From Escherichia coli (GTDB lineage: Bacteria; Pseudomonadota; Gammaproteobacteria; Enterobacterales; Enterobacteriaceae), in the NCBI RefSeq assembly GCF_003334815.1, contig NZ_QOWO01000014.1: a stretch of DNA of 64,000 nt, one strand, 5' to 3'. A program made the translations under genes and the position numbers. Of the stretch, positions 1 to 55,601 are shown piece by piece. The notes under the pieces were generated by a model. That model searched no databases. It was not told the origin of the DNA and saw only the letters and a program-made list of their open reading frames with translations. Every line of letters starts with the position of its first letter. Position 1 is the first letter of the stretch.

Positions 1-221
1 CTTTTCAAAAGGGTATTTTGGCTTTGACATATTAGGGGCTATTCCATTTCATCGTCCAACAAAATGGGTGCAGTACAGGTTGATAGAAATATCGCCTGGG
101 GCTTTTGTCCATCTGGAACCTCGCGAATGCTTAACGCCAGACAGCCTCAAGCACCCGACGCCATTCTATACCTGATAATTCTTCCAGCGGCGTTCACGTT
201 TAAAATCAGGAATACTGCTCG

Positions 222-22593: not shown

Positions 22594-23385
22594 TTAGAGA
22601 TCAATTTCCTGCCGTTTTACCTGTTGCCAGACTTCTTCCATTGTTTCGAGGTCAACACCTGTCATTTCCAGTCCACGCGCGGCAACAATACGCTCCACTT
22701 CGCGAAAACGACGCTCGAATTTTTCGTTCGCTTTTTGCAATGCGATTTCTGCTTTCGTCCCTAAATGGCGAGCCAGATTAACCGTGGCAAACAGCAGGTC
22801 CCCCATTTCCTCCTCCAGTTTAGCCTGGTCGACAACAGCCTGCCGCGCTTCGTACATCACCTCGTCGATCTCTTCGTAGACTTTATCGACTACCGGACCA
22901 AGCGTCGTCCAATCGAAGCCAACGTTGGCGCAACGTTTCTGGATTTTTTGCGCACGCATTAAAGCCGGTAAACTACGAGGAATATCGTCCAGCGCCGAAT
23001 GCTGCGCTTTCTGCGCGCGCTCTTCGGTTTTGATTTGCTCCCAACGGGCAAGCACTTCACTACTGTTTTCGGCAGAACTATCAGCAAAAACATGCGGATG
23101 GCGACGCTCTAATTTATCGCTAATAGCAGCGCAAATATCATTAAAGTCAAAGCGCCCTTCTTCCTGAGCCATTTGCGCGTAAAACACCACCTGGAATAGC
23201 AGATCGCCCAGTTCACCGCGAAGATCGTCAAAATCTTCACGGGCGATGGCGTCCAGCACTTCGTAGGTTTCTTCAAGGGTGTAAGGCGCAATGGTGGCAA
23301 ATGTCTGCTCTTTATCCCACGGGCAGCCGTTTTCCGGATCGCGCAGGCGCTGCATAATAGTGAGCAAACGGTCGATTTGATTCAT
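22594..23385 (-). CDS. mazG: Nucleoside triphosphate pyrophosphohydrolase MazG, 263 aa
   Basis: Two MazG-type EExGDLLF motifs (GELGDLLFQ, EEMGDLLFA). Confidence 0.95.
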   Translation of the reverse strand: MNQIDRLLTIMQRLRDPENGCPWDKEQTFATIAPYTLEETYEVLDAIAREDFDDLRGELGDLLFQVVFYAQMAQEEGRFDFNDICAAISDKLERRHPHVFADSSAENSSEVLARWEQIKTEERAQKAQHSALDDIPRSLPALMRAQKIQKRCANVGFDWTTLGPVVDKVYEEIDEVMYEARQAVVDQAKLEEEMGDLLFATVNLARHLGTKAEIALQKANEKFERRFREVERIVAARGLEMTGVDLETMEEVWQQVKRQEIDL

Positions 23386-23455
23386 TGAATTGTCCTGAAA
23401 ATTGCGGGTCTGTCAGGTGGAAACCTGTGACCAGAATAGAAGTGAGTTAGTAACA

Positions 23456-23791
23456 CTACCCAATCAGTACGTTAATTTTGGCTTTAATGAGTTGTAATTC
23501 CTCTGGGGCAACTGTTCCTTTCTTCGTTGCTCCTCTTGCCCGCCAGGCGATACTTTTTACCTGATCAGCTAACGCTACGCCATCACGTTCCTGACCGGAT
23601 AAAACAACTTCGAACGGATATCCTTTTGATTGCGTTGTACAAGGAACACACAGACACATACCTGTTTTGTTGTTGTACATGAAAGGACTCAGGACAACAG
23701 CTGGACGATGTCCAGCTTGCTCGCTACCTTTTGTCGGGTCAAAATCAACCCAAATCAGATCGCCCATATCGGGTACGTATCGGCTTACCAT
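23456..23791 (-). CDS. mazF: Toxin MazF, mRNA interferase endoribonuclease, 111 aa
   Basis: Full-length [38 protein letters not shown]...; start overlaps mazE stop by 1 nt. Confidence 0.97.
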   Translation of the reverse strand: MVSRYVPDMGDLIWVDFDPTKGSEQAGHRPAVVLSPFMYNNKTGMCLCVPCTTQSKGYPFEVVLSGQERDGVALADQVKSIAWRARGATKKGTVAPEELQLIKAKINVLIG

Positions 23792-24039
23792 TACCAGACT
23801 TCCTTATCTTTCGGCTCTCCCCAGTCGATATTCTCGTGGAGGTTTTCCGGCGTGATGTCGTTGACCAGTTCAGCAAGCGTAAATACGGGCTCTTTACGCA
23901 CTGGCTCAATAATTAATTTGCCATCCACCAGGTCAATCTTCACTTCATCATCAATATTCAGATTGAGCGCCTGCATTAACGTAGCCGGGATCCGCACCGC
24001 CGGTGAATTTCCCCAACGCTTTACGCTACTGTGGATCAT
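23791..24039 (-). CDS. mazE: Antitoxin MazE, 82 aa
   Basis: Full-length [30 protein letters not shown]... Confidence 0.97.
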
Positions 24040-24116
24040 AACCCTTTCCTCAAACCGCTATCATATGTAGATACAGTATATATCAATCTACATTGTAGAT
24101 ACGAGCAAATTTCGGC
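24040..24116 (-). promoter_or_regulatory. mazEF promoter/operator region with palindromic repeats
   Basis: ATGTAGATACAGTATATATCAATCTACATTGTAGATAC between relA stop and mazE start; matches the described mazEF operator architecture. Confidence 0.5.
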
Positions 24117-26351
24117 CTAACTCCCGTGCAACCGACGCGCGTCGATAACATCCGGCACCTGGTTGAGTTTACCCAGCACGCGCCCCAGCACTTGCAGGTT
24201 GTAAATCTCAATGGTCATGTCGATGGTCGCCAGTTGCTGTTTGGTGTCGCTACGGCTGGCAACGCCAAGCACGTTCACCTTCTCGTTGGCGAGAATGGTC
24301 GTGATATCACGTAACAACCCACTACGATCATTAGCTACCACGCGGACCACCAGCGAATATCCGGCGGAGTAGCTCTCACCCCATACCGCGTCAACAATGC
24401 GTTCTGGCGCATGGGAGCGCAGTTCCGCCAGTTGTTCGCAATCGGCGCGGTGTACTGAAATACCGCGCCCCTGGGTAATGAAGCCGACAATCTCATCTCC
24501 AGGAATCGGCTGGCAGCAGCGCGCGATGTGGTGCATCAGGTTGCCAACACCTTCGACTACCACGCGACCGTTATCTTTACTGCGGTTTTGCGGCGTGTAG
24601 CTTTTTTGCTGAAGTTGCTTCAGCGCGGCGGCGTCCTGCTCTTCGGCACTCGGCTTATTAAATTGCGATTGCAGGAAGTTCACCATCTGATTGAGACGGA
24701 TATCCCCGCCACCAATCGCCGCCAGCAACTCGTCGACATCATTGAAGTTGTAACGCGGCAGCAGATGTTTTTCTGCTTCTTTCAGGCTGATCCCCAGATG
24801 TTCCAGCTCGTCGTCAAGGATTTGCCGCCCAGCCAGAATGTTTTTGTCACGGTCCTGTTTACGGAACCAGGCGTGAATTTTCGAACGCCCACGGCTGGTT
24901 GTGACGTAACCGAGGTTTGGGTTTAACCAGTCACGGCTGGGGTTCGGCTGTTTCTGGGTGATAATTTCAATCTGGTCGCCCATCTGCAGCTGGTAGGTGA
25001 ACGGCACAATGCGCCCGCCAATTTTTGCCCCGATGCAGCGGTGTCCGACATCACTGTGGATGTGGTAAGCGAAGTCCAGCGGCGTTGATCCCGCAGGCAA
25101 ATCAACGACATCACCTTTCGGCGTAAAGACGTACACCCGGTCGTCAAAGACCTGACTACGTACTTCGTCGAGCATTTCGCCGGAATCAGCCATCTCTTCC
25201 TGCCACGCAATCAGTTTACGCAGCCAGGCAATCCGGTCTTCATGTCCCGAACGTGCGCCGCCAGCAGCCGCGCCCTCTTTATATTTCCAGTGCGCAGCAA
25301 CACCCAACTCTGCATCTTCATGCATCTGTTTGGTGCGGATTTGGATCTCAACGGTTTTTCCACCCGGCCCCAGAACCACGGTATGAATAGACTGATAACC
25401 GTTTGGTTTCGGGTTAGCGACGTAATCGTCAAACTCATCCGGCAGGTGGCGATAGTGAGTGTGCACTATCCCCAGTGCGGCATAGCAATCCTGTAAACGC
25501 TCGGCGACAATACGTACCGCACGCACATCAAACAGCTCATCAAAGGCGAGGTTCTTTTTCTGCATTTTACGCCAGATGCTGTAGATGTGTTTCGGACGAC
25601 CATACACTTCCGCTTTAACGCCTTCAGCTTTCATCTCAGCGCGCAGATGACCAACGAACTCTTCGATGTAGTGTTCGCGGTCGAGACGCCGTTCATGCAG
25701 CAGTTTGGCAATTCGTTTGTATTCGGTTGGATGGAGGTAACGGAAGCAGTAATCTTCCAGTTCCCATTTCAGTTGTCCGATTCCGAGACGGTTAGCCAGC
25801 GGTGCGTAGATGTTGGTACACTCTTTTGCCGCCAGTACACGTTCATCTTCCGGCGCATCTTTTACTTCGCGCAGATGAGCAATACGCTCCGCCAGTTTGA
25901 TGACTACGCAGCGAAAATCATCGACCATCGCCAATAACATCCGGCGAACGTTATCGACCTGTTCGGAGGAAACAGAATCAGTGTGCGTCGCTTTCAGCTG
26001 GCGGATCGCCGCCGTATCACGCACGCCGTGAATAAGGTTAACGACCGACTTACCGACGCTCTCACGCAGCACATCTTCGCTGACTACGTTGGCATCCGCC
26101 AGAGGGAAAAGCAGCGCCGCCCGCAGCGTGTCAATGTCCATACTTAATGTCGAGAGGATCTCCACCATCTCAACACCACGCCACAATAACAGACTGGCAT
26201 CCGGATGCCCCTGCGTCTGTTGCAGACAATACGCCCAGGTTTCGGCTAAGCACTCACACGACTTCTGGCTGGTAATACCCAGACTTGCGATCCATTTTTC
26301 CGGATCAAATTCACCAGCCTTATTGATATGTGCACTTCTTACCGCAACCAT
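24117..26351 (-). CDS. relA: GTP pyrophosphokinase, (p)ppGpp synthetase I, 744 aa
   Basis: Full-length ORF MVAVRSAHINKAGEFDPEKWIASLG... Confidence 0.98.
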   Translation of the reverse strand: MVAVRSAHINKAGEFDPEKWIASLGITSQKSCECLAETWAYCLQQTQGHPDASLLLWRGVEMVEILSTLSMDIDTLRAALLFPLADANVVSEDVLRESVGKSVVNLIHGVRDTAAIRQLKATHTDSVSSEQVDNVRRMLLAMVDDFRCVVIKLAERIAHLREVKDAPEDERVLAAKECTNIYAPLANRLGIGQLKWELEDYCFRYLHPTEYKRIAKLLHERRLDREHYIEEFVGHLRAEMKAEGVKAEVYGRPKHIYSIWRKMQKKNLAFDELFDVRAVRIVAERLQDCYAALGIVHTHYRHLPDEFDDYVANPKPNGYQSIHTVVLGPGGKTVEIQIRTKQMHEDAELGVAAHWKYKEGAAAGGARSGHEDRIAWLRKLIAWQEEMADSGEMLDEVRSQVFDDRVYVFTPKGDVVDLPAGSTPLDFAYHIHSDVGHRCIGAKIGGRIVPFTYQLQMGDQIEIITQKQPNPSRDWLNPNLGYVTTSRGRSKIHAWFRKQDRDKNILAGRQILDDELEHLGISLKEAEKHLLPRYNFNDVDELLAAIGGGDIRLNQMVNFLQSQFNKPSAEEQDAAALKQLQQKSYTPQNRSKDNGRVVVEGVGNLMHHIARCCQPIPGDEIVGFITQGRGISVHRADCEQLAELRSHAPERIVDAVWGESYSAGYSLVVRVVANDRSGLLRDITTILANEKVNVLGVASRSDTKQQLATIDMTIEIYNLQVLGRVLGKLNQVPDVIDARRLHGS

Positions 26352-36813: not shown

Positions 36814-36858
36814 AAAGCAACCTCAATAAGAAAAACTGCCGCGAAGGATAGCAGGAAT

Positions 36859-37223
36859 AAAAAAAGGGAGCACTGTATTCACAGCGCTCCCGGTTCGTTT
36901 CGCAGCATTCCAGCTACTTTTGTTGCTCCCTGCTCATCCTTGACAACTTTTCCTCTGGCCTTGCGGCCAATCGTTCATCCTGAACTATTGCTTCCTGCTC
37001 ACACCACCCCGATGTGATACTTCATCCTGAAGTGTCCCTGGCCTTCCTGACCCACCGAATCATCCTGACCGGTTCTCATTCTCCATCCTGGAGGTGTCCT
37101 TTAACGCGTCCTGCGTCATCCTCTTCGCTTCATCCAGAAGCCTTTCCCTGAAACACCATCCTGGTGTGTCCTGCAGAAGTGTCATCATCCTGATGTTCAC
37201 TTCGTTGTCTGACTCCCTGTCGA
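36859..37223 (-). ncRNA. csrB: CsrB small RNA (CsrA-sequestering)
   Basis: About 20 GGA motifs on the minus strand, many as CAGGAUG/AGGAUG; 5' end GUCGACAGGGAGUCAGACAACG; 3' hairpin GGGAGCGCUGUGAAUACAGUGCUCCC plus U7. Confidence 0.85.
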
Positions 37224-55395: not shown

Positions 55396-55601
55396 ACTTC
55401 CTGAGCCGGAACGAAAAGTTTTATCGGAATGCGTGTTCTGGTGAACTTTTGGCTTACGGTTGTGATGTTGTGTTGTTGTGTTTGCAATTGGTCTGCGATT
55501 CAGACCATGGTAGCAAAGCTACCTTTTTTCACTTCCTGTACATTTACCCTGTCTGTCCATAGTGATTAATGTAGCACCGCCTAATTGCGGTGCTTTTTTT
55601 T
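55396..55601 (+). ncRNA. gcvB: GcvB small RNA
   Basis: Divergent from gcvA; TATAGT -10 box at 55385-55390; 5' ACTTCCTGAGCCGGAACG; GU-rich segment GTTGTGATGTTGTGTTGTTGTGTTTG; 3' terminator GCACCGCCTAATTGCGGTGC plus T9; 206 nt. Confidence 0.85.

Follow-up and report, generated by a model that had tools for sequence, protein, structure and literature searches.

The locus between relA and mazG in the 64,000-nucleotide stretch of Escherichia coli DNA analysed here (the window) is, with near certainty, the canonical chromosomal mazEF (chpA) type II toxin-antitoxin operon of the species at its usual site. E. coli mazEF is among the most studied toxin-antitoxin systems and the copy described here is identical to the reference; the module is already known in full detail, and there is nothing new in it. 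A survey of complete genomes adds new numbers for a polymorphism already known from reviews, and the linkage of mazEF to relA reads as an insertion accident, not as proof of a stringent-response circuit.

Layout of the mazEF locus

The interval 23456-24116 consists exactly of mazF, mazE and the 77-nt spacer between relA and mazE. On the minus strand, relA (24117-26351; GTP diphosphokinase, ppGpp synthetase I, 744 aa, from the open reading frame list and NCBIfam NF008124) is followed by the relA-mazE intergenic region (24040-24116, minus strand), which holds the mazEF promoter/operator region and the mazE Shine-Dalgarno sequence. Next come mazE (23791-24039, minus strand; 82 aa, ATG to TAA), encoding the antitoxin with its AbrB/SpoVT-type N-terminal DNA-binding domain and disordered MazF-binding tail, and mazF (23456-23791, minus strand; 111 aa, ATG to TAG), encoding the ACA-specific endoribonuclease toxin. 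A 70-nt spacer (23386-23455, minus strand), whose mazG-proximal 40 nt are common to genomes that lack mazEF, leads to mazG (22594-23385, minus strand; nucleoside triphosphate pyrophosphohydrolase, 263 aa). The surrounding order, taken from the open reading frame listing and RefSeq annotation, is barA, then rlmD-relA-mazE-mazF-mazG-pyrG-eno, and RefSeq labels the same four genes, relA-mazE-mazF-mazG, on 100%-identical DNA.

The head-to-tail arrangement of the four genes on the minus strand, as described in the initial annotation, is borne out by the open reading frame list and the sequence, and the 1-nt overlap that it reported between mazE and mazF is seen directly as the one base common to the mazE stop and the mazF start (GG-TAATG-GT). 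The mazE Shine-Dalgarno sequence, GAGGA, lies 7 nt 5' of the ATG, while a Shine-Dalgarno-like AAGGA for mazF sits inside the end of mazE. From the TAATG overlap, we infer that translation of mazF is probably coupled to that of mazE. A small, co-oriented and overlapping pair with the antitoxin first and its own operator upstream, the locus has the layout of a type II toxin-antitoxin operon.

Protein identity and mechanism

MazE of the window is identical to PDB 1MVF_D over 82 of 82 residues and MazF to PDB 3NFC_A over 111 of 111, so that the comparison with characterised MazE and MazF proposed in the initial annotation comes out in its favour; MazE also matches 1UB4_C, and MazF, which gives full-length matches to 1UB4_A and 5CK9_A, has the fold of the solved MazF structures. 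All four proteins score above their NCBIfam equivalog cut-offs, in agreement with the identities first assigned to the genes: MazE against NF007312 (196.2 bits, cut-off 113), MazF against NF007386 (227.4 bits, cut-off 120, covering residues 1-111 of 111), MazG against NF007113 (370 bits, cut-off 208; also 419 bits against TIGR00444) and RelA against NF008124 (1674.6 bits, cut-off 728). In Pfam, MazF falls into PF02452 (E = 6.4e-24) and MazE into PF04014 (E = 4.6e-14), and when searched as exact sequences, both turn up under the names MAZF_ECOLI and MAZE_ECOLI on at least 1000 public contigs. Between 22400 and 26400 the window differs from K-12 MG1655 at a single base, 26014 in relA, and mazG, mazF, mazE and the control region therefore carry the reference sequence. 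With MazE and MazF identical to the K-12 reference, the early description of the locus as a well-known module of minor interest is apt.

Divergence in the MazF catalytic residues, which had been named as the finding that would argue against activity, is ruled out because E24, R29 and T52 are all kept. We take R29/T52 to be the numbering of E. coli MazF itself, presumably that of Zorzini et al. 2016. Catalytic roles of the Arg and Thr are described for R29/T52 of the MazF-sth homologue (PMC10893535), and the E24A variant of MazF is inactive (PMC5888573). For the identical MazF protein, ACA-specific cleavage of single-stranded RNA is experimentally established (PMC8749433, PMC5888573). Because the sequences are identical to experimentally tested ones, failure of the mazEF identification is very unlikely, and no observation points against it.

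The steps of the mechanism are taken from experiments on the identical K-12 molecules (PMC8749433, PMC5888573, PMC4333400, PMC7167474, PMC1626106). MazF dimers would cut single-stranded RNA at ACA, and two such dimers would be neutralised by one MazE dimer via its disordered C-terminal tails to give MazF2-MazE2-MazF2. The AbrB-type N-terminal domain of MazE would repress the mazEF promoters at the three-site 'cab' operator, with repression tuned by the MazF:MazE ratio such that binding is stronger at about 1:1 and weaker with an excess of MazF. Breakdown of MazE by ClpAP and Lon (PMC8749433, PMC5888573, PMC1626106) would free MazF once expression halts, MazF would also cleave its own mRNA, and the antisense RNA aMEF would raise mazEF expression. 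Our count of ACA sites, nine for mazF and two for mazE, agrees with that of Nikolic et al. 2018 (PMC5888573).

Operator, promoters and the antisense RNA aMEF

The relA-mazE spacer holds two perfect inverted repeats that have their middle arm in common. ATCTACA/TGTAGAT is formed by 24094-24100 and 24086-24092, with arms 1 nt apart, and ATGTAGAT/ATCTACAT by 24086-24093 and 24065-24072, with arms 13 nt apart; an ATATAT palindrome at 24078-24083 lies between the inverted repeats. When the spacer was shuffled 5000 times at the mononucleotide level, 3% of the shuffles had a perfect arm of 8 nt and 0.9% had at least three 7-mer inverted pairs; on sequence statistics alone the palindromes stand modestly above chance, suggestive but not overwhelming. 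The decisive evidence is the match to a published oligonucleotide: 49 of the 50 bases of the cab oligonucleotide (PMC4333400) equal window positions 24056-24105, the one mismatch being its last, non-native base. On this match, the spacer palindromes can be identified as the published 'cab' operator, an 'alternating palindrome' of three MazE-dimer sites (24056-24105, minus strand), of which site 'a', with the ATATAT core, occupies 24073-24086 on the same strand. The operator-like palindromic repeats that the initial annotation saw directly upstream of mazE are thereby accounted for, and at the level of the DNA site MazE has the palindromic operator upstream of its own gene that is characteristic of its family.

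MazE affinities of ~0.5-5 µM for operator DNA were reported by Zorzini et al. 2015 (PMC4333400), who also describe that MazF strengthens operator binding by MazE near 1:1 and abolishes it in excess (PMC4333400). An operator of 47 bp holding three MazE-dimer sites is credited there to Marianovsky et al. 2001, as cited in PMC4333400. The sole consensus promoter match in the relA-mazE spacer was rejected as the mazE promoter because its -10 hexamer overlaps the mazE start codon, and the consensus promoter scan, at the thresholds used, did not pick up P2 and P3, which are known from experiment.

The plus strand carries a feature that was overlooked in the earlier reading of the sequence, the antisense RNA aMEF (ameF, b4844; 23751-24150, plus strand), located from the RefSeq annotation of MG1655, whose sequence there is the same as that of the window. 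From a start 40 nt within mazF, it extends over mazE and the operator and takes in the last 34 nt of relA. The interval shows zero differences from MG1655 and can be taken as identical in sequence to the experimentally studied locus; Rfam has no family for aMEF. Van Gundy et al. 2022 found the non-canonical aMEF promoter to be active (PMC8749433), and in the same work silent mutations of that promoter lower MazE and MazF, an effect of aMEF that is independent of RNase III (PMC8749433).

Distribution and origin of the cassette

Our survey set comprises 5,426 complete E. coli genomes, of which 4,419 carry mazEF and 1,007 (19%) lack it. Queries with mazE, mazF or the operator alone each return 4419 genomes, always with one copy, chromosomal and at one site, and no copy of mazEF was found on E. 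coli plasmids in the genome collection. The relA-mazE spacer as a whole likewise occurs once and on the chromosome in 4419/5426 genomes, and is 100% identical in 2835. A 1.1-kb query reaching from the end of relA to the start of mazG matches all 5426 of 5426 genomes and does so at full length in 4416. [quoted passage not shown]

In genomes without mazEF, relA is followed by mazG across a 95-nt spacer, as in strain HSP60 (L002:3283-3377; compare the relA-mazG spacers at L007:5236-5365 and L008:5239-5349), with a hairpin directly after relA. When the window is aligned with the HSP60 empty site, the two sequences part immediately after the stop codon of relA and are homologous again from ~40 nt ahead of the mazG ATG; from these break points the cassette therefore extends over approximately 23427-24116 (minus strand), ~690 bp. 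In place of the cassette, the empty allele has ~55 nt of REP-like hairpin sequence, in which a 12-bp hairpin, GCUGGAUAUGGC-GUCA-GCCGUAUCCAGC, is followed by a U-rich stretch and resembles a terminator. The 95-nt spacer of HSP60 folds at -33.2 kcal/mol (z = -6.0). The hairpin of the empty allele has an aligned counterpart in the spacer that separates relA from mazG in Klebsiella pneumoniae and the Citrobacter freundii complex, namely the REP element (GCCGGATAAGGCG...CGCCATCCGGC), and the gene order in Citrobacter and Klebsiella is rlmD-relA-mazG-pyrG-eno, with nothing between relA and mazG. In Salmonella enterica, oppositely oriented fimbrial genes come after relA.

Because the empty E. coli sites, Citrobacter and Klebsiella all keep relA-mazG together with a homologous REP-like hairpin, we infer that the mazEF-less order is the ancestral one and that mazEF is probably an insertion or replacement within Escherichia that displaced the hairpin. 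The polymorphism itself is on record: Fraikin et al. 2020 write that in strains such as UTI89 'relA-mazG ... form undisturbed bicistronic operons' (PMC7167474). The GC content of mazE (48.6%) and mazF (46.1%) is lower than that of relA (53.8%) and mazG (50.8%), and 147 plasmid records hold relatives of MazF that are 60-80% identical to it; both the lower GC content and the plasmid relatives fit a mobile origin. One PLSDB entry, NZ_OL790696.1, contains mazF at 98% identity on a 4.8-Mb record. We rejected it as an example of plasmid-borne mazEF, since a record of 4.8 Mb is evidently a misfiled E. coli chromosome.

Conservation of MazE and MazF

For a view of selection on the pair, we compared the window with three genomes whose relA 3' ends are 1.6-4.4% diverged from it. 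In these genomes mazE has 0 nucleotide changes and mazF has 4-6, all synonymous, and RefSeq gives them the same protein accessions, WP_000581937.1 and WP_000254738.1. Variants in the relA-mazE spacer fall at 24107 and 24057, outside the palindrome arms, and the arms are unchanged. Conservation of both proteins is consistent with purifying selection on an active pair, and the additional invariance of mazE may stem from its overlap with aMEF. At an identity of at least 99%, mazE (23791-24039) is found in 4252 of the 4419 carriers (96%) and mazF (23456-23790) in 3106 of the 4419 (70%), a comparison of identity bands that is indicative only, as its relA control includes mazEF-less lineages, and from which we draw no claim about selection.

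Link to relA and physiological role

The physiology of mazEF is disputed, with programmed cell death through ppGpp, reversible stasis, a selfish cassette and phage defence all being argued; the contradictions between the ppGpp/programmed-cell-death and the reversible-stasis models are set out in PMC7167474. It is possible, although we hold it to be the less probable course, that the cassette persists chiefly as an anti-phage (abortive-infection-like) or selfish addictive module with no role in host stress physiology, MazF being freed once MazE is no longer made because of infection or loss of expression. The patchy, accessory distribution and the plasmid-borne relatives speak for this, as do reports that native mazEF moderately lowers susceptibility to RNA phages and that ACA is under-represented in RNA-phage genomes (PMC12151602, 2025), and a report of more P1 infection upon mazEF deletion, in the form in which PMC7167474 cites it. 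The reported phage effects are moderate, however, and the single chromosomal site with no E. coli plasmid copy is unlike the pattern of actively mobile defence islands. Nor does any defence model of PADLOC-DB v2 match MazE or MazF at E <= 0.001, a result that describes the library and is compatible with a role in defence.

The order relA-mazE-mazF-mazG has also been read as a selected regulatory circuit (the model of Aizenman 1996, Gross 2006 and Engelberg-Kulka; summaries in PMC1626106 and PMC7167474), and the initial annotation described the module as linking the stringent-response synthetase to a toxin-antitoxin system. The four genes are indeed co-oriented; no terminator-like site is predicted on the coding (minus) strand of either the relA-mazE or the mazF-mazG spacer, and the predicted fold of the mazF-mazG spacer is no stronger than those of its shuffled versions (z = -0.6), all of which would suit such a circuit. 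The physical adjacency stands, and the functional part of the claim is disputed. Because 1,007 of the 5,426 complete E. coli genomes (19%), together with Citrobacter and Klebsiella, have relA-mazG without mazEF, any circuit would be dispensable and derived. Fraikin et al. 2020 state that a functional link to the neighbouring cistrons has not been demonstrated and that the ppGpp models are contradictory (PMC7167474); the same source reports contradictory ppGpp results and toxin-antitoxin deletions that show no fitness defect under stress (PMC7167474). We therefore regard the adjacency to relA as the product of insertion, historical in nature and not evidence of common function, and a selected circuit as unlikely.

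We give little credence to a further proposal, that the cassette, in replacing the REP-like hairpin, rewired mazG in the carriers (81%) and, via MazG, the turnover of ppGpp and other nucleotides. Expression of mazG from relA read-through or from a weak promoter of its own would have given way to the MazE/MazF-autoregulated promoters together with aMEF. A weak promoter-like match, CTGACA-16-GACAAT, is present in the mazF-mazG spacer within the mazG-proximal 40 nt. If true, the rewiring would be a regulatory effect at the level of the host, different from one E. coli phylogroup to another. Earlier publications already describe mazG as co-transcribed with mazEF, and at most the comparative, allele-replacement angle would be new. 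Finally, the reading of the pair as a decayed or inactive remnant in this strain is rejected with a probability close to nil: the two unbroken open reading frames encode exactly the active K-12 proteins, neither the operator nor either ribosome-binding site is damaged, changes across diverged genomes are synonymous only, and nothing was found in favour of decay.

Strain background and other features of the window

The window is collinear with E. coli K-12 MG1655 2887301-2951300, with the same gene coordinates all the way from cysI to fucI; among complete genomes, ECCTRSRTH03 and STK78-E are the nearest to it. Differences from MG1655 amount to an IS150 end at window 1-76, ~12 SNPs over 46 kb, RelA M113T and a collapse of metZWV. 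The RelA substitution (ATG to ACG; 26013-26015, minus strand), relative to both MG1655 and the common allele WP_000226815.1, lies in the N-terminal pseudo-hydrolase region of the protein. It occurs in 0 of the 5,426 complete E. coli genomes, every one of which matches a 61-nt query with the SNP at its centre at all but a single base. The exact 744-aa M113T RelA is nevertheless encoded on 5 contigs from a few draft assemblies, with protein records such as CAM9208105.1 and HAH2870826.1. Because several of these assemblies are independent, we rejected an error of sequencing or assembly and take M113T as a rare real allele.

At the metZWV locus, one initiator tRNA-Met (CAU) gene is present at 60086-60162 (plus strand) vs three in tandem in MG1655 (metZ, metW and metV), and the ~220 nt missing from the window correspond to two repeat units. 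The locus holds three of the four initiator tRNA genes of K-12, and its collapse may lower initiator tRNA dosage. At the other end of the window, IS150 is inserted at a hok/sok-type locus beside cysH, where Rfam gives a full-length 'sok antitoxin' match at 1-156 (minus strand) and where, just beyond the window, the annotation of the closest genome has a transposase of IS150 and a Hok/Gef gene. A small CRISPR array at ~16713-17107, between ygcE and queE, is annotated in the closest genome as well; it has a 61-nt periodicity (TRF) and the type I-E repeat CGGTTTATCCCCGCTGGCGCGGGGAAC, and there are no cas genes within the window. CsrB (36856-37215, minus strand) and GcvB (55396-55601, plus strand) give full-length Rfam matches at their usual K-12 positions.

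Comparison with known systems

Among related systems, EndoA/EndoAI of Bacillus subtilis (MazF-bs, YdcE; PDB 4MDX, 1NE8) has the same fold, and its catalytic R25/T48 correspond by position to R29/T52 here; it is a weak match to MazF (E ~4e-05) and recognises UACAU, not ACA. The plasmid addiction modules PemI/PemK of R100 and Kis/Kid (parD of R1) belong to a homologous toxin family (Kid 1M1F against MazF, E = 7.6e-09) and have the same architecture with toxin-modulated operator binding (PMC4333400), but differ from mazEF in their low sequence identity and in being plasmid-borne. The closest true plasmid relatives of MazF that we found are 60-80% identical, such as one at 70% on a plasmid of Providencia stuartii. 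The chromosomal paralogue in E. coli, ChpBI/ChpBK (chpB), combines the same PemK/MazF fold with an AbrB-type antitoxin in an antitoxin-first operon, yet it sits at another locus than mazEF and is distant in sequence: MazF reaches 55 bits with the ChpB model, for which the cut-off is 129, and MazE 35 bits with ChpS, for which it is 101. The counterpart of the pair described here is MazE/MazF of E. coli K-12 (ChpAI/ChpAK; b2783/b2782; PDB 1UB4, 1MVF, 3NFC, 5CR2), whose proteins are 100% identical. K-12 mazEF has the same operator, the same overlap and the same neighbours, and the DNA from mazG through the 3' end of relA is identical, with no differences in the module.
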